In this document: in pieces, positions 14,337 through 22,145 of the stretch
Layout: each line of letters begins with the position of its first letter
Position numbering within the stretch: the first letter of the stretch is position 1
Virus record (IMG/VR): IMGVR_UViG_3300037461_001229
Span: 64,001-86,145 of that record
Direction: 5' to 3' (one strand)
Origin: a virus
Lineage: Duplodnaviria; Heunggongvirae; Uroviricota; Caudoviricetes
DNA length: 22,145 bases
The notes under the pieces: generated by a model
What the model saw: the letters and a program-made list of their open reading frames with translations, nothing else
What the model was told of the DNA's origin: nothing
Databases searched by the model: none
Program-made: the position numbers and the translations under genes

Positions 14337-14349
14337 GTATCTTTGTAAA
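14337..14349 (+). promoter_or_regulatory. Bacteroidota-type -7 promoter element (TAnnTTTG)
   Basis: gTATCTTTGtaaa is identical to 2603-2615 and lies in the gap before ATG 14379. Confidence 0.65.
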
Positions 14350-14357
14350 AATTAAAC

Positions 14358-14375
14358 GAAACTGAAACTGAAACT
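14358..14375 (+). repeat. Hexamer tandem repeat (GAAACT)x3 directly upstream of a start codon
   Basis: gaaact gaaact gaaact gaa ATG. Confidence 0.9.
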
Positions 14376-14378
14376 GAA

Positions 14379-14945
14379 ATGGCACAATTAACATTCACAA
14401 TTGCTGACGGTATCCTGACCGTTGGGAGCGCAAACACAACAGCCGATTACTTATCAGCCGATTACCGGGCTAAAGCCTACAGGAATGGCGATAGGGATGG
14501 GGTAAAGGTTTACCCGATAAACGGTAATCCCGATTTCCCTACATGGACCTGCGATGACTACCAAAATTTTGCTGTTAATATCAATGGTACGCCATTATCT
14601 CCCGCTAGCGCTTATTTCTTCGTCTGGTACTTCAACCGTGCCTGCGGGACAAGCCTGGGCTATAATACGCAGTACTGCCAGCATATCCTTTCATTTGCTA
14701 TGACTCTTGATACCTCGGTACCGGAGCAGATAACTGATATTGCTAAGGCGGGCTATATGACTATCCAGGCTGATGAAGATAATGCAGGGGTGGTCTATAT
14801 AGGCGGGGACGATGTCAGCGACCAGAGCTCTTATATAGTGGCTGGTGAAAGTAAGTTTGTAGAGCTTGATGATCTTTCGAAATACTGGGCCTATGCTGAG
14901 GTAGCTGATTGTATTATAAATGTCCTTGGCGGCTATAAATATTAG
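14379..14945 (+). CDS. Virion structural/tail-fibre adaptor-like protein
   Basis: The C-terminal TIQADEDNAGVVYIGG..VS...AGES....DDLSKYW pattern is common in phage tail regions. It precedes the tail spike. Confidence 0.5.
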   Translation: MAQLTFTIADGILTVGSANTTADYLSADYRAKAYRNGDRDGVKVYPINGNPDFPTWTCDDYQNFAVNINGTPLSPASAYFFVWYFNRACGTSLGYNTQYCQHILSFAMTLDTSVPEQITDIAKAGYMTIQADEDNAGVVYIGGDDVSDQSSYIVAGESKFVELDDLSKYWAYAEVADCIINVLGGYKY

Positions 14946-14978: not shown

Positions 14979-17372
14979 ATGCAAAATAGACTAAGGCATA
15001 GTAGTTTTGGACTGGTACCGACAATAGGAGTAGGCAACAAGTCGCAGTCGTGGAGCCAGTACTGGGCAAGTAGGGCGAATTTTTTCACAACACAAAGGAG
15101 CGGATTAGAATTAGTTGACAGTTACGGTGGTACAAATCCATCCATTCAACTACCATATTTATATGCAGAAAATAATGATGAGTATGCGAGATTTGTTGAT
15201 TCATCAAGAGTTTTAGATATAGCTTCAAATGATGAATTTACCCTTTGCGGGTGGGCTAAAAACGAAACAACGGAAAAAACAGCATATCACGCCTTTGCAG
15301 GGAAAAACGTTGCGGGATCACTGAGCGGGAGATATGGTATTTTTCAGAATGTAACAACTGGATATGTTTCTTCGTTGATTCAGACATCAATAAATACGTA
15401 TACAATCACATCCACAATAGATCATACAGACCATGCATGGCGATTTTTAAGGATGGATGTAAAACAAAGCACTAAAAAATTCCGGCTCTTCATAGATGAA
15501 ATTCAAATAGGCGCAGATGTTGATTTTCTTGGCACTTTTGGAGCATTGCCGGAAACTGCCTTTTTTGGTATTGGGGTTGCTAATGCCAACGGCGGCGGCG
15601 GGGGCACTAACTGGATTGACAGGGGGTCTTATTCCGATTGGTATATCTATCATAAAAGACTTTCCGCAGAAGAAGGCACTCTATTAATGTCACGTGGCCG
15701 AGTTTCTGGTGCGGTAGGTTATTGGGATTGTGTGCTTCGCCAGGATAATATATTAATAGACGCTTCCGGTAATGGCTATCATTTAACTGGAGTTAACCTT
15801 GAAAAAGCAACTCATTTGAAATATGGTTCAAATGGAAGCCGCCAATCGTTAGATATTGGTTATTCGCTATATGAAAACTTCCCCAATAAGGAAATACAGA
15901 TACCTTATACCCAGGATGGGATTGCGTTAGTTGGATATACACCTTCAGGATACTCAAAAACGACAGATGTGCCAGGATCAGTTACTGGGTATAATCTTGC
16001 TGATAGCTATTTGCAAATAGCAGGATGGGATAGATCAAACACTACTATATTCAGTTATTTTGCGAGACGGACAGACCTTCAATTTTACTATGATGCGGAT
16101 CATGTGAGTTGGATGCATTCAAGCGAATTAACAAATTTTAATCTGTCAAACTACTTTGAGAATGATTACAGGGGATTATGGTTCACGAAAATTACCGATA
16201 GGGTTCTGACAGAACTTATAGGTTGTTCATCAAATCTTACTGGATCAGATTATAATAAAGCGATTAGATATACAGGTGAGACAGGGTTGTTAAAATTTGA
16301 TGTTATAGTAGCCGGGCATATTTGCGCTGTTAACGGAGCAAAAATGTTAAAGTTTGATGACGTTGATACTATCTCGTTAAGTCTTGATTATGGAGCAACT
16401 TATCCGCATACCAAAGTATTGGTTGGTGTTACGGAAGTACAACACGCAATGATATTTGATAACGGTAATATAATGTTTTGTAGTGCAACAAAGTGTTATT
16501 ATTCAACAGATAATCTTGCAACCTATAACGAGTCAACCGTTTTAGATATAGCAGGGGACCCATTTGTTGCAAGTGACAGACAGAATTTTAGACCCTGGGA
16601 CTGTGATCATTTTGAGGTAACACATGACGGAGTTAGTTTACATACATGGGGGTCTTATATAAACGCCGGTACGGGTGTAGATGTTAATATAAATCAATGG
16701 TACACAATAGATCAGGGATTGACGGTTAAGAGCGGTTATAAATTTCATGTGTCTTTGCCGGATGTAGAATGTAGACATATACATTTCGTTAAATACGATA
16801 AATATGCAGATAAATTTTATATGGGCACGGGCGATGATGATGTCAACCATAATAATTTCATGCGTGGAACCTACGATTCGGTAACGGATGTTTGGACATG
16901 GGTAATAATAGGACAGGGGGCGGCAAATTCTATTTGGGAAAATTCTGATTTTGCTGTCGATGATGATTATTTTTATTTTACAGGTGAGCTTACGCTTCTT
17001 CTAAAGGGGATAAGGCGCTCATTAAAAACAGATATTGCCAATATAGCAACTAATCAGGTCAGAATATGGCCAGTGGAAGAATATTCACTGGCGATGTTTA
17101 TTGATGATAATTATTACATTCATTGTGAATCATTCAACAACTCTACAAAGGTTTATGCTCATATAAATTTTAGTGTTGACGGTAAGAGATATATATCAAG
17201 ACAATTTGATAATATAGATTTAGGGTCAGTGGCGTTTGGCGGTTATCATTGTATAGGGAAACTTGATAATGGGTATTATCTTTTTCAGGCCATATCCGTT
17301 GGTGAATTAGTAACAACTAATTACACAGAAGGACCAACATTACTCATTAAGCCGAGCAAAATAGAGGTATAG
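14979..17372 (+). CDS. Tail spike/receptor-binding protein: LamG (ConA-like) domain plus BNR/sialidase-like beta-propeller
   Basis: FTLCGWAK...WRFLRM...RLFIDE...SDWYIYHKRLS...GYWD...DASGNGYH (LamG). Asp-box-like YYSTDNLATY, YTIDQGLTV and FSVDGKRY, plus RHIHFVKYD...GTGD. Confidence 0.75.
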   Translation: MQNRLRHSSFGLVPTIGVGNKSQSWSQYWASRANFFTTQRSGLELVDSYGGTNPSIQLPYLYAENNDEYARFVDSSRVLDIASNDEFTLCGWAKNETTEKTAYHAFAGKNVAGSLSGRYGIFQNVTTGYVSSLIQTSINTYTITSTIDHTDHAWRFLRMDVKQSTKKFRLFIDEIQIGADVDFLGTFGALPETAFFGIGVANANGGGGGTNWIDRGSYSDWYIYHKRLSAEEGTLLMSRGRVSGAVGYWDCVLRQDNILIDASGNGYHLTGVNLEKATHLKYGSNGSRQSLDIGYSLYENFPNKEIQIPYTQDGIALVGYTPSGYSKTTDVPGSVTGYNLADSYLQIAGWDRSNTTIFSYFARRTDLQFYYDADHVSWMHSSELTNFNLSNYFENDYRGLWFTKITDRVLTELIGCSSNLTGSDYNKAIRYTGETGLLKFDVIVAGHICAVNGAKMLKFDDVDTISLSLDYGATYPHTKVLVGVTEVQHAMIFDNGNIMFCSATKCYYSTDNLATYNESTVLDIAGDPFVASDRQNFRPWDCDHFEVTHDGVSLHTWGSYINAGTGVDVNINQWYTIDQGLTVKSGYKFHVSLPDVECRHIHFVKYDKYADKFYMGTGDDDVNHNNFMRGTYDSVTDVWTWVIIGQGAANSIWENSDFAVDDDYFYFTGELTLLLKGIRRSLKTDIANIATNQVRIWPVEEYSLAMFIDDNYYIHCESFNNSTKVYAHINFSVDGKRYISRQFDNIDLGSVAFGGYHCIGKLDNGYYLFQAISVGELVTTNYTEGPTLLIKPSKIEV

Positions 17373-17375
17373 ATT

Positions 17376-17786
17376 ATGAACGAAATCGAGATATTCAACT
17401 TAATAGACAAGGCACTGAGCCGGTACGCTGAGAGCACATCGACACTTATTGCCGCCGAACTGGATAATGTGCGCCATGAGATACGTGGCGTTAAGGATGA
17501 GTTTAAGCAGATGAACGGCAAACTGCGGGAGGTCTGCGAGTGGAAGGCAAAACAGGAGGGGATACAGCAGGAGTGTAGTCACCGGAATGATAACAACTAT
17601 AAAACCATTGGGGCGGTGGTTGGTGTTGCCGGATTGCTTTTAACCATATTTCTTGGATTCAGTCGTGTGAATGAACGGATGGATAAAATACAGAGGGAGA
17701 ATGAGGCGCAAAGTATAATGATGATGGAAGACAGGGGACATCCCAGCCCGACAAGAGGTTCAATAGATAGCTTGCTACTGCAATGA
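17376..17786 (+). CDS. Coiled-coil, single-TM membrane protein (holin/antiholin or XhlA-like)
   Basis: Coiled coil with MNGKLR, TM segment IGAVVGVAGLLLTIFLGF, and a 4-nt overlap with the endolysin start. Confidence 0.55.
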   Translation: MNEIEIFNLIDKALSRYAESTSTLIAAELDNVRHEIRGVKDEFKQMNGKLREVCEWKAKQEGIQQECSHRNDNNYKTIGAVVGVAGLLLTIFLGFSRVNERMDKIQRENEAQSIMMMEDRGHPSPTRGSIDSLLLQ

Positions 17787-18178
17787 TAAAAGAGCTACTT
17801 AAAAAGCATGAAGGCTTACGGTTAAAGCCTTACAGAGATACGGTGGGCGTGCTTACTATCGGTTACGGGCGGAACCTTGAGAGCAGGGGAATAACAGAAC
17901 AGGAGGCAGATATGATGCTTGAGAATGATATTAAATGGTTCACCAGGCAGTTACAAATGGAATTGCCATGGTTTGACAGCAAGCCGGAGAATGTCAAGAC
18001 GGTGCTGGTGAATATGGCTTTTAACCTGGGTGTCGGTGGGTTGCTGGGTTTCAAAAACACATTGAAACTTATCGAAGACGGCAAGTACGAGGAGGCTTCA
18101 AAGGCTATGCTAAAGTCATTATGGGCGCAACAGGTGGGCGCAAGAGCCGTTGAATTATCACAGATGCTTGCGGGTTAA
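17783..18178 (+). CDS. Endolysin, GH24 phage lysozyme
   Basis: HEGLRLKPYRDTVGVLTIGYGRNL carries the E-x8-D-x5-T triad. LVNMAFNLG and SLWAQQVGARA are also present. Confidence 0.93.
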   Translation: MIKELLKKHEGLRLKPYRDTVGVLTIGYGRNLESRGITEQEADMMLENDIKWFTRQLQMELPWFDSKPENVKTVLVNMAFNLGVGGLLGFKNTLKLIEDGKYEEASKAMLKSLWAQQVGARAVELSQMLAG

Positions 18179-18260
18179 TAACTTGCGGTCATTAGTTAAT
18201 AGCATTTGGCAAAATCTGTTATCTGTTATATTTATTTAGTCTAATTTTGAATAGTGTAAG

Positions 18261-18290
18261 TGTCACGTTTTTACCGGCATTAACGTGACA
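18261..18290. promoter_or_regulatory. Perfect 9-bp inverted repeat (operator-like or hairpin)
   Basis: TGTCACGTT-N12-AACGTGACA, just downstream of a TAATTTTG (TAnnTTTG) at 18242-18249. Confidence 0.5.
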
Positions 18291-18433
18291 AATTGAGAGT
18301 TCTTTTTTGTATAAATAGTTATAAAACGGTACTTATTGCATAGTTGTTATTTTTAACAACAATAATTAATGTAAAGTATAATTAACAAAACCGGCACTAT
18401 TTGTAAAATATATGACACAATTAAAACTACTTT

Positions 18434-18766
18434 ATGAATGTAAGCATTAACATTGATGACTTAACAGATTTAAGACGAAGAAGCGATACATCAGAAATCC
18501 TTTTTGAGCGTATTATAATATTATTTGCAAAAGAATTTATCAGAAAAAACCCCCGTAATCGCAATGCTGAAGGATATAAAAATAAACTGGCCGAATACAT
18601 TAATAAAAGAATTAATAAAGAAGGTATTTATCTTAAAGACAAAGTGAGTGAGGTATGGTTTAGTTGTCAGGGTAAGGGATATTTGACGTATTGGGGATAT
18701 AAAGATTCAAAGATTATTTATGAAGTAGATAATTTAATTAGGGGCGAAGAAATATGGCACAAATAA
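18434..18766 (+). CDS. AT-rich hypothetical protein inserted in the lysis cassette (moron-like)
   Basis: 110-aa basic ORF. Two of three spot-counted lines are 15/60 GC (the third 23/60) versus 30/60 in a lysozyme line. It has its own 255-nt AT-rich upstream region. Confidence 0.6.
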   Translation: MNVSINIDDLTDLRRRSDTSEILFERIIILFAKEFIRKNPRNRNAEGYKNKLAEYINKRINKEGIYLKDKVSEVWFSCQGKGYLTYWGYKDSKIIYEVDNLIRGEEIWHK

Positions 18767-18942
18767 AACTATTAGTCACTTTAACATGGAGCAAGATTAT
18801 GGCCTTTATGGTCCTGATCGCTGCGGTGTCGCTGGACTTCTATAACGGCGGGGCAACCTGTACTATGTTTGCCATACCTTTTATTTCTGCGCTGGTTCTT
18901 GGTAAGCAGTATTTTGACAAGGGAAGGCCTGAAAACAAATGA
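18754..18942 (+). CDS. Probable holin (two TM helices)
   Basis: 62 aa with two hydrophobic segments and a basic C-terminus, overlapping the spanin start. Confidence 0.6.
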   Translation: MAQIKLLVTLTWSKIMAFMVLIAAVSLDFYNGGATCTMFAIPFISALVLGKQYFDKGRPENK

Positions 18943-19391
18943 GACAAATTAAGGTCATAGCCTTATTGATTTTTCTCCTTCCAGGATGCGTCACACAGCG
19001 CAAGTGCCTGGATAAGTTCCCGCCTGACACGGTGCGGACTGTAACAACCATTTACCGGGACACAACTATTAATATAACCATTAAAAAACTTGCGCCAAAA
19101 TTAGCTTTCGGTTCTATTAATGCACCATTAATAGTGCGTTACGGAAATACAACTGTGAAAACATACGTAAAACATGACACTATTTATTCGTTTTTTTCAA
19201 GTATAGATACAACTCTGACCTTAAAACTGGACTCCGTTATCCGGGTAACTACCGAACAATTATCGGTAATTCAGACGTATAAAGAGAAGTACGTGCCTAA
19301 ATGGGTGAGGGACCTGGCCTGCTTCGGCGGGTTCGTGGCGGGGTTGCTGATACTTATATTTATTTTGAAAGTCAAAAAGTTTTTTGCATGA
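18939..19391 (+). CDS. Unimolecular spanin (u-spanin)
   Basis: Lipoprotein signal with lipobox LLPGC, beta-rich DT-repeat periplasmic part, and a C-terminal TM (FGGFVAGLLILIFIL) followed by KVKK. Confidence 0.75.
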   Translation: MRQIKVIALLIFLLPGCVTQRKCLDKFPPDTVRTVTTIYRDTTINITIKKLAPKLAFGSINAPLIVRYGNTTVKTYVKHDTIYSFFSSIDTTLTLKLDSVIRVTTEQLSVIQTYKEKYVPKWVRDLACFGGFVAGLLILIFILKVKKFFA

Positions 19392-19621
19392 ATAGTTATT
19401 CGCCATTTTGCACCGAAAGACGCAAGGTGTTATTTGATGCATTAGATAAGTTTAAGAGAAGCAGCGACAGGGGGATAGCTAAATACCTTATTAAATACCA
19501 TCCCGGTTTTTACCCTGATGCGGAAGAGGCACGGAGGCACATAAGATACTATCGAGGTACTAACGGAAAGAAAAACAGAGACAAACTATCAATTAAAAAA
19601 TATGTCAGAGAACCCATTTGA
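19388..19621 (+). CDS. Small basic helical protein, possibly the detached N-terminal domain of the phosphoesterase
   Basis: ATG 19388 overlaps the spanin TGA (ATGA), a better start than 19301. Contains RGIAKYL...EEARRHIRYYRG.NGKKNR. Confidence 0.6.
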   Translation: MNSYSPFCTERRKVLFDALDKFKRSSDRGIAKYLIKYHPGFYPDAEEARRHIRYYRGTNGKKNRDKLSIKKYVREPI

Positions 19622-20384
19622 GTTACCGGAAAGCTACAAAGAGGAATACGAGCCATATCATTGCCCGTTCTATGATAACTGGCTGGTTATGTCAGACATT
19701 CACGTGCCATACCACGACATTGGGGCAATAAGTGAATTAATCAACTACGGCATTGAAAAGAATATCAAAGCCATATTAATCAACGGCGACTTTCTTGACT
19801 GCTACCAGTTAAGTAAATTTAACCCGGATCCACGCAAGCGCAACCTTAGTGAAGAGATGGAGGCAGGCATAGAGCTGTTAAAGTCATTACAGAAGTACAC
19901 GGGGGCAAAGATATTCTTTAAAAGCGGCAACCATGAAGAGAGGCTTGAGAACATCCTGATAAGGCAGGCCCCGTTTCTGCTTGGTATTCCTGACTTTGAG
20001 CTTGATAAGCTGTTACGGCTTGAGCAAATGGGTATTGAATACATTAAAGACCAGCGAAGGGTTTATATAGGTAAGTTAGCGGTCATTCACGGGCATGAGG
20101 TTAGGTTAGTGAATACCATTGTAAACCCTGCCAGAACACTATTTTTAAAGGCAAAGCGGTCAACTATGTGCGGTCATCTGCACGTTCCCTCAATGCACAC
20201 CGGCAAGAGCTTAGATGATAAAATAATAAGTTGCTGGAGCACCGGTCATCTTGGCGATCCTCATCCGAGGTATGCAAGGAATAACGAGTGGATACATGGC
20301 GGGGCAAGGGTAGAGGTTGATGCAGAGGGCAATTTTGAGGTGGTTAATCTGAGGCTTATACACAATAAACTATACAGGGCATGA
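19602..20384 (+). CDS. Calcineurin-like metallophosphoesterase
   Basis: All five motifs are present: SDIH, NGDFLD, GNHE, HGH and GHLH. Confidence 0.9.
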   Translation: MSENPFELPESYKEEYEPYHCPFYDNWLVMSDIHVPYHDIGAISELINYGIEKNIKAILINGDFLDCYQLSKFNPDPRKRNLSEEMEAGIELLKSLQKYTGAKIFFKSGNHEERLENILIRQAPFLLGIPDFELDKLLRLEQMGIEYIKDQRRVYIGKLAVIHGHEVRLVNTIVNPARTLFLKAKRSTMCGHLHVPSMHTGKSLDDKIISCWSTGHLGDPHPRYARNNEWIHGGARVEVDAEGNFEVVNLRLIHNKLYRA

Positions 20385-20614
20385 AGAAGGTCTATATTGA
20401 ATGGAATGATGCCTGGTCTTATGATCCATGGACAAGCAACAAGGATGCTGTTGAAATATGCAGTAAGATGATGCTCTGCAAGACGATAGGGTGGGTGTTG
20501 GACCAGACGGCTGACTTTATTATTATCTGTCACAGTTATAATGATGAGTTACAGGTGACGGGTTGTCTAAATATACCCATGTCATGCGTTAAAAAGGTTG
20601 AAGCGTTAGAGTAG
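20381..20614 (+). CDS. Conserved small phage protein (W.DA...W...C.T.GW...IP pattern)
   Basis: ATGA overlap with the phosphoesterase. VYIEWNDA...W...CKTIGWV...IPMSCVKKV is a pattern I recognise from phage hypotheticals. Confidence 0.65.
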   Translation: MKKVYIEWNDAWSYDPWTSNKDAVEICSKMMLCKTIGWVLDQTADFIIICHSYNDELQVTGCLNIPMSCVKKVEALE

Positions 20615-20639
20615 TTCTGTTTTTCATAGTTTGGGTTTT

Positions 20640-20709
20640 CCGGGGCTGTTTCCTGATTTGGCTGAAATTCACTGCGGGTTTTGGCGGTCGGTTACGGCCC
20701 CGGTTTTTT
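20640..20709 (+). terminator. Intrinsic terminator with an extended G.U-rich hairpin
   Basis: CCGGGGCTG (20640-48) pairs with CGGCCCCGG (20695-703) and is followed by T6. The enclosed sequence forms further stacked stems. Confidence 0.75.
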
Positions 20710-20765
20710 ACATATATTATGTAACAGGGAATATGTTTAACAACTTATAAACAACCGGGAATTAT

Positions 20766-20951
20766 ATGATAAATATCACTATTTTTAGTATAGTGAAAGC
20801 AAGTATTAAGATCGCTGTATCCGGTAAATTTACAGAAGATCAGCTAAAGATATTAAAACGGGTTGTTGTCGTATTAGAACAGCATAAACTGTCTGTCAGG
20901 CTCGTAATGACTGAAAAGAAACACAAATCCTGCCTGCGGAAAGTTATTTAG
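20766..20951 (+). CDS. Small hypothetical protein, paralog A (probable start GTG 20793)
   Basis: KASIKIAVSGKFTEDQLKILKRVVVVLEQHKLSV aligns with the ORF at 21108. Confidence 0.6.
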   Translation: MINITIFSIVKASIKIAVSGKFTEDQLKILKRVVVVLEQHKLSVRLVMTEKKHKSCLRKVI

Positions 20952-21031
20952 AATGCGTATAAATTACGTTCTATTTAACATAATTATATTATCATGTCAA
21001 ATAAAAATTTTAATTTAGCATCATAAATTTT

Positions 21032-21107
21032 CAGAATCCCCTTAATTTCCTATAATTAATATTATTGTTAAATAGGAAAGGGGGTTCTGGAAGAAAAAAC
21101 CAGAACC
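21032..21107 (+). promoter_or_regulatory. Alternative-hairpin 5' leader
   Basis: Hairpin 21032-21089 competes with GGTTCTGG (21083-90) / CCAGAACC (21100-07), which abuts ATG 21108. Confidence 0.5.
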
Positions 21108-21272
21108 ATGAAAACAGCAACAATCAAAATCGCAACTGCTGACAAATCGTTCAGCGGGGATCAGCTTCAAATTATTCGCAGGATTACACAGGTATTAATA
21201 CAGCATCAGCTTGCTGTATGTACTATTATTGGCAGGATTCATCACATAAATAAACATTTAAAAGCAGCTTAA
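21108..21272 (+). CDS. Small hypothetical protein, paralog B (54 aa, absent from the ORF track)
   Basis: MKTATIKIATADKSFSGDQLQIIRRITQVLIQHQLAVCTIIGRIHHINKHLKAA*; about 19 identities over about 45 aligned positions with paralog A. Confidence 0.7.
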   Translation: MKTATIKIATADKSFSGDQLQIIRRITQVLIQHQLAVCTIIGRIHHINKHLKAA

Positions 21273-21276
21273 AACT

Positions 21277-21498
21277 ATGACAACAGAACTATCAAAAGCA
21301 TTTTACAGCATCCCGGAGGAGGAGAGAACCCCCGTTGCGGATGAAATTTGCAAGGCTATGGAGTGGAGCCGGTCAACCTTTGACAACAAGAAGGCGGGGC
21401 GGTCATCTATCACTTATCTGGAACGTGCAGCCCTGACATTCTTTTTTAAGTCAAAGGGTGTGGATTACATCAGTGGATTACCAATATTCTACAGATAA
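21277..21498 (+). CDS. Cro/XRE-like helix-turn-helix regulator
   Basis: VADEICKAMEWSRSTFDNKKAGRSSITYLE fits an HTH pattern. It is 73 aa and at the start of the early region. Confidence 0.7.
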   Translation: MTTELSKAFYSIPEEERTPVADEICKAMEWSRSTFDNKKAGRSSITYLERAALTFFFKSKGVDYISGLPIFYR

Positions 21499-21752
21499 TG
21501 GATGACATGGAAACAATCAAATGGCTGATAGCTGCCAATTATGAAAAGGCGGTACAGGTGCAAAAGATACAGGACTTCCGGGCAAAGCTCATGGACTGCA
21601 AAAGTCAGTCAGAGATAAGCTCGCTGGTCTTCCAGTATGATGACTTGCTTAATGAAAATCCGAAGCTATACACGGCTATTAAATTAGCCAGTGTGCGAGT
21701 TGGTCGGTTACATAAAGAGAAGTTGAATAGCTATAACAATTTAATGAATTAG
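21498..21752 (+). CDS. Hypothetical helical protein
   Basis: 84-aa ORF coupled to the HTH gene (TAATG). Confidence 0.6.
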   Translation: MDDMETIKWLIAANYEKAVQVQKIQDFRAKLMDCKSQSEISSLVFQYDDLLNENPKLYTAIKLASVRVGRLHKEKLNSYNNLMN

Positions 21753-21754
21753 CT

Positions 21755-22145
21755 ATGAAAACAACCATTCAGATCAAATCCATTTTTGGCAAACTTCTTT
21801 TTGAATTAGAAAAAGAAGGAAATACTGTTAAACATACAGTAGAAGAAGCCGTAAAACAAGGGGCAAACCTTTACGGGGCAAACCTTATCAGGGCAGACCT
21901 TGACGGGGCAAGACTTGTCGGGGCAAACCTTGACGGGGCAAACCTTATCAAGGCAAACCTTTACGGGGCAAACCTTGACGGGGCAAACCTTGACGGGGCA
22001 GACCTTGACGGGGCAAACCTTATCAAGGCAAACCTTTACGGGGCAAACCTTGACGGGGCAAACCTTATCAAGGCAAACCTTTACGGGGCAAACCTTGACG
22101 GGGCAAACCTTATCAGGGCAGACCTTGACGGGGCAAACCTTATCA
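21755..22145 (+). CDS. Pentapeptide-repeat protein (3'-truncated)
   Basis: MKTTIQIKSIFGKLLFELEKEGNTVKHTVEEAVKQG followed by ANLYG/ANLIR/ADLDG repeats to the window end. Confidence 0.92.
   Translation, partial: MKTTIQIKSIFGKLLFELEKEGNTVKHTVEEAVKQGANLYGANLIRADLDGARLVGANLDGANLIKANLYGANLDGANLDGADLDGANLIKANLYGANLDGANLIKANLYGANLDGANLIRADLDGANLI
21860..22145 (+). repeat. 15-bp tandem coding repeat (about 19 units, e.g. GGGGCAAACCTTGAC)
   Basis: Head-to-tail units encoding A(N/D)Lxx, with no unique spacers. Confidence 0.95.

Follow-up and report, generated by a model that had tools for sequence, protein, structure and literature searches.

A candidate FopS-like antisense RNA at the 3' end of the late transcript of a putative Bacteroidota phage

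The window analysed here, i.e. the whole stretch of 22,145 nucleotides, represents the terminal 22 kb of a viral contig 86 kb in length. Its genes lack Shine-Dalgarno motifs, their leaders are A-rich and promoter boxes of the type TAnnTTTG are present, features that together point to a host from the Bacteroidota, a phylum free of Shine-Dalgarno signals (PMC6847099). Downstream of one such box, short tandem GAAACT repeats (14348-14378) abut the start codon at 14379. Concerning the assembly, bases 1-125 of the contig repeat window positions 17343-17467, and the source-run depth of 24 forks at this 125-bp repeat into 13 and 10. The repeat marks a fork between two phage variants with shared upstream genes and different lysis and downstream modules, so that the 86-kb contig joins two variants. 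Since a single unbranched contig of the source run covers positions 17423-21902, the element described below lies on the same molecule as its proposed targets in one of the two variants; the late end of the sister variant carries no such seed.

The late/lysis block is closed, on the plus strand, by a gene coding for 77 amino acids (20381-20614) that belongs to phrog_25889, annotated as of unknown function. Its TAG stop codon (20612-20614) provides the first three bases of a U/G-rich, single-stranded segment of 28 nt (20612-20639, plus strand), hereafter the seed, which is antisense to a translation start and contains the anti-AUG triplet CAT at 20625-20627. This is followed by a long terminator hairpin (20640-20703) with 26 pairs, seven of them G.U as counted from the predicted fold, which is stable on the plus strand only, and directly by the U6 tail of an intrinsic terminator (20704-20709, plus strand). 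The plus-strand fold of 20600-20720 reaches -38.5 kcal/mol (z -3.3, with none of 200 shuffles as good), the minus-strand fold of the same segment -18 kcal/mol (z -0.6), and of the hairpin-plus-U-tract structures found in the 86-kb contig none is more stable than this hairpin (-34.8). The seed is predicted to be mostly unpaired if the RNA begins at the stop codon. The seed-plus-terminator layout of a small RNA, which the original prediction had read from the letters with coordinates that all agree with the sequence, is thus borne out by the open seed, the strand-specific hairpin and the U6 tract. It should be noted that no TAnnTTTG promoter box was found upstream of the element, which means that an RNA made here would represent either the late-transcript tail or a piece cut from it.

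The 13-nt core of the seed (20618-20630, plus strand) corresponds to the 5' R1 seed region of both the FopS consensus and GibS (PMC11697453, supplement). Moreover, other, unrelated phages use the exact 20-mer, on the opposite strand, as a normal gene start; the seed is thus the complement of a common Bacteroidota initiation context. On sequence grounds, the core is a generic one on both counts, a point that the original prediction missed. With FopS (RF04319; PMC11697453) the element shares the R1 seed at the single-stranded 5' end, 13 nt being identical, and its position fits the 3' UTR origin known for FopS-14, another member, FopS-10, blocking translation through pairing near a start codon (PMC11697453). 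The 3'-extended seed R1' of FopS is, however, absent, the positions after the core reading UUGGGUUUU in place of the consensus AUUAGAUUUAAGG, and the FopS covariance model matches 20617-20632 at 8.5 bits (E 8.3), below the gathering cut-off of 56. The element may thus be FopS-like in action at most and is not a member of the family. Whereas FopS is present in 12-15 copies per genome, with a sigma-ABfr promoter (TAnnTTTG) of its own or, as in FopS-14, an origin from a 3' UTR, the element occurs once in the 86-kb contig and has no TAnnTTTG upstream; at about 98 nt, with a much longer hairpin, it also lies at the end of a phage late operon, and its best predicted target is a phage regulator. GibS from Bacteroides thetaiotaomicron (RF04182; PMC7366714) has the same R1 core at its 5' end and an extended AU-rich seed pairing around start codons, as is likewise predicted for the element, but GibS is about 142 nt long, is encoded between genes of the host and carries a second seed. 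The GibS covariance model gave no match at the element up to E 10, and neither the element nor 16 further element loci matched anything in Rfam.

Phage antisense RNAs such as c4 (P1/P7), Sar (P22) and OOP (lambda) act by pairing to silence a regulatory gene of the phage, c4 and Sar doing so at the ribosome-binding region (PMC12197685). The element would resemble them as a phage RNA pairing with a phage regulatory gene, its own pairing being a predicted one. Their targets are, however, ant or cII in lysogeny control, whereas the element, the tail of a late mRNA in which the anti-AUG core is generic, is proposed to act in trans on a gene of the same strand 650 nt downstream; between 19500 and 22145 there was no Rfam C4 match up to E 5. 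Both the seed with its mode of action (FopS, GibS) and the antisense control of phage regulators (c4, Sar, OOP) are already known, and a limited literature search found no report of a phage late-mRNA tail silencing early genes. Phage small RNAs have been characterised mainly in Proteobacteria, PMC12197685 containing none for Bacteroidota.

As regards the targets within this genome, the main one is predicted to be a plus-strand gene (21277-21498) for a 73-aa XRE/HTH protein in the Cro position, with Atlas matches to XRE/HTH clusters. The homolog P0006 has a divergent HTH repressor-like gene and an integrase as neighbours—the classic Cro position—and is followed by a pentapeptide gene that shares 67% identity over 42 aa with the pentapeptide-repeat gene found here (21755-22145, plus strand). 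Read as its reverse complement, the 21-mer at 20612-20632 matches the Cro-like start region (21272-21291, plus strand) in blocks of 9 and 10 separated by a 2x1 internal loop; this site, which spans the start codon and is predicted to be accessible, is the best predicted one at -24.5 kcal/mol. The further matches reported at 21105 and 21753 were also found in the sequence. With gene starts taken from a simple ORF caller and duplex energies that ignore target accessibility, the two best partners among 132 starts are, as had been anticipated, the adjacent early genes at 21277 and 21108 (ranks 1 and 2), and the pairing runs across the AUG. The -24.5 kcal/mol obtained with the 28-nt seed beats all the starts taken from other phages (1,179 of 1,179). 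Under a null of recombined real starts, 17 of 50,000 were as good (3.4e-4 per start), which corresponds to p 0.002 for the five adjacent genes and to a genome-wide p of about 0.04 for the 132 starts, the latter being optimistic because the finding was picked for its match. The second-best predicted target, the 54-aa early ORF at 21108-21272 (plus strand), the stop of which overlaps the leader of the Cro-like gene, pairs at -20.0 kcal/mol and falls in the top 1%. The pentapeptide gene, also proposed as a target, did not hold up: its start pairs at -12.2 kcal/mol, which is ordinary (36th percentile) and no better than average. The start of the element's own upstream gene is not a favoured partner either.

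The depth of the Cro pairing stems from the variable 5' flank of the element, which fits codons 3-5 of the Cro-like gene and was equalled by none of 8,000 random flanks and by none of 42 flanks from other elements. The Cro-like start ranks first also for seven of 42 foreign seeds, so that its rank reflects in part a strong generic context. Word searches revealed no close relatives of the 77-aa and Cro-like proteins, and four distant Cro-like relatives lie on short contigs with no seed; an AlphaFold model built from the Cro-like sequence alone was of low quality (pLDDT 60) and was left unused. Two small ORFs (20793-20951 and 21108-21272) with similar N-terminal halves precede the Cro-like gene, and no repressor gene is divergent from it here, unlike in the homolog locus L130. 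Just before ORF 21108 there is a strong plus-strand hairpin (21029-21092) with no U tail, the surrounding segment 21011-21115 folding at -30.6 kcal/mol; it is possibly a 5' stabiliser, a processing site or an operator.

An orthologous locus, L277, was represented by one contig found via relatives of the upstream phosphoesterase (71% identity); it contains the same gene pair, the ortholog of the 77-aa gene being 49% identical, followed by early genes. A variant seed lies directly at the stop, in which CATGT replaces CATAG and the G/U-rich linker is longer, and behind it, on the plus strand, come an unrelated hairpin of 30 nt and then a U tail. Four of 13 early starts of L277 fall in the top 5% of foreign starts for its own seed (p of about 0.004, computed for 14), in comparison with one of 13 for the seed of this window. 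The tag TAACCAA is found in three early leaders of L277 and is mirrored in the L277 seed. The latter pairs poorly with the Cro-like start of this window (-14.3) and well with its pentapeptide start. This locus and L277 thus show a reciprocal preference for their own starts, with n = 2 loci only. The element is absent in L001, L129, L281 and L290; other relatives, in which the last genes differ, either lack the seed or have a G/U-rich linker that contains no anti-AUG (L285).

As regards conserved complementarity to own genes, the L277 seed prefers its own early starts, but no general rule emerges across 43 elements, many of which come from records that are fragments. Compared with foreign starts, their best own-genome targets were no better (mean p 0.49; Fisher p 0.26); finer nulls placed five of the 43 below 0.05 (binomial p 0.06), and the near-complete genomes minus this one gave a Fisher p of 0.15. 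Deep own-genome matches were seen in G009 (p 0.007), G002 and G005 (p 0.02 each), the excess among the 43 being weak at best. In G009, a complete genome (G009:C1:3470-3480, 34094-34411; L169, L170), the element follows a 395-aa capsid-like gene and pairs deeply with the start of a small gene of its own (-25.1); a search for diverged relatives in which to compare co-variation found none. A small host-target scan returned as its top match an element's own antisense frame, and nothing was concluded from it.

These comparisons bear on whether the element is a generic anti-start RNA aimed mainly at host mRNAs, its match to the Cro-like gene being incidental. Its targets would then be numerous genes with MKK/MKN starts, e.g. 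those for exported and outer-membrane proteins, as in the case of FopS and susC. The identity of the core with the FopS R1 seed, the use of the same 20-mer as a real gene start in unrelated phages, the lack of a class-wide own-gene preference and the fact that in most element phages none of the own starts matches the core exactly are all in agreement with such a role; the close fit of the 5' flank to codons 3-5 of the Cro-like gene, which random and foreign flanks come nowhere near, and the reciprocal preference in L277 speak against it, and we regard it as rather unlikely.

The core is found, by sequence pattern, behind late genes in many unrelated phages. The combination of seed core, GC stem and U5 was found in more than 120 IMG/VR stretches, and in most of these the hairpin is genuine, the antisense frame is short and a sense stop lies a little ahead of the anti-AUG, most often by 5-14 nt; the seed-plus-terminator layout recurs in more than 100 IMG/VR loci. 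The genes upstream often encode the major capsid protein, portal, head protease, endolysin or members of phrog_19091. The element is not universal, the cultured phage P12024S having none behind its phrog_19091-family gene. There is about one element per phage, some copies having a TAnnTTTG box of their own. The FopS model, applied to 42 other phage records, produced many weak matches (15-32.5 bits), none above the cut-off of 56. BLASTN against cultured phages gave chance matches only, and a metagenome scan with a longer seed returned solely a real gene start in an unrelated genome. Among prokaryote genomes, 28 of 49 strict matches are Bacteroidota by record label. A loose phylum-wide pattern was present in 38 of 301 host genomes, about the level of the backward control (a one-base variant: 90 of 301), and in view of this lack of enrichment no host-wide prevalence is claimed.

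Could the complementarity be just a chance match of a U-rich 3' UTR, or the trace of inverted repeats bounding an invertible segment of 640 bp? Terminator linkers are indeed U-rich, the loose host-genome pattern is not enriched and the arms 20612-20632 and 21272-21291 are complementary at 19 of 21 positions. Before phage terminators, however, the 13-base motif was matched 29 times, against 4 and 7 for two permuted motifs, and reading the matches left about 18 distinct true terminators as opposed to at most one in the permuted controls. Against inversion, the arms differ by an indel and the L277 ortholog, which has no such repeat, still possesses both seed and terminator; no inversion joint was seen in the source-run contigs, with which a rare one would still be compatible. 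Both origins are hardly probable.

The placement of the motif is also relevant to a signal acting in cis at the 3' end, without any pairing in trans, either as a site for an RbpB-type RRM protein or as an aid to stability or termination of highly expressed mRNAs. RbpB binds the 5' region of FopS and some 3' UTRs, the motif follows abundant genes in phages and gapA-, L27- and L31 type B-like genes in hosts, and the similar G/U-rich linker of L285 does without the anti-AUG. A cis signal would nevertheless leave unexplained the anti-AUG register, the Cro-specific flank and the anti-Shine-Dalgarno versions seen in other phages, and it is considered unlikely. Judged by the N-termini of their products, the genes preceding the host copies concerned (L180, L182, L199 and L203) resemble gapA and the genes of ribosomal proteins L31 type B and L27.

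Finally, the motif might be the real or relic translation start of a short peptide on the minus strand, an alternative that the original prediction itself had named as refuting. Here the antisense ORF has 12 codons (20589-20627, minus strand) and is judged a by-product of the anti-start seed. Its start context is strong and is a true gene start elsewhere, and a 17-codon antisense frame is kept in three related phages. The antisense frames, however, have no sequence in common and differ in length, with 3-121 codons overall and 5-28 behind one gene family, the L277 ortholog encodes a different 8-mer, no TAnnTTTG is present upstream on the minus strand and the hairpin folds on the plus strand, the sense strand being better across the 43 elements (Wilcoxon p 0.005). 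A minus-strand peptide as the main function was rejected owing to frames conserved neither in length nor in sequence and to the sense-strand folding; we hold the reading to be very improbable.

Taking the terminator, the open seed, the complementarity, the recurrence and the enrichment together—each of them shown at the level of sequence—the element is likely to be a FopS-like 3'-end antisense RNA, although not a FopS member. That it is a pairing RNA of some kind seems probable; that the phage's own early genes are its real targets is a more evenly balanced matter. According to the mechanism proposed, the 3' end of the late transcript would act in a FopS/GibS-like manner, its unpaired seed, which complements the A-rich surroundings of the AUG, being followed by an intrinsic terminator that would define and protect the 3' end. 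With no promoter motif of its own, the element would act as the late-mRNA tail or as a processed fragment, accumulating late in infection as the tail is released or exposed. Pairing in trans over start codons would block ribosome loading, by analogy with FopS-10; the core would be generic, and the flanks would extend the pairing to the phage's own early genes, the Cro-like one first and ORF 21108 next, both presumably repressed. The late build-up of the RNA would in this way damp early translation and probably affect some host start sites as well. Late-to-early silencing by the element is thus plausible, albeit unproven.

A broader proposal can be put forward only tentatively: in many Bacteroidota phages, abundant late mRNAs might end in a FopS-type anti-start seed and so serve as trans-acting repressor tails, the flanks of which, in some lineages including this one, would be tuned to the phage's own early regulators, giving a late-to-early shut-off at the RNA level. 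If true, the seed known from FopS and GibS, the most thoroughly studied riboregulatory motif in Bacteroidota, would extend to a widespread phage 3'-end element, and a Shine-Dalgarno-free phylum would be regulated via one near-universal anti-AUG seed. The element, as a 100-nt unit with a named target, is directly testable by a reporter assay.

Two further sets of copies should be mentioned. Four Bacteroidales copies (L171, L173, L188 and L212) share a conserved seed behind a gene for a UvrD/PcrA-like helicase, and both of those checked for a TAnnTTTG box have one; these are a candidate separate family of small RNAs. In the phage loci L086, L109, L254 and L062, both an anti-Shine-Dalgarno motif (CTCCT) and an anti-AUG lie between the stop codon and the terminator, and given these versions the anti-start design may reach beyond Bacteroidota.
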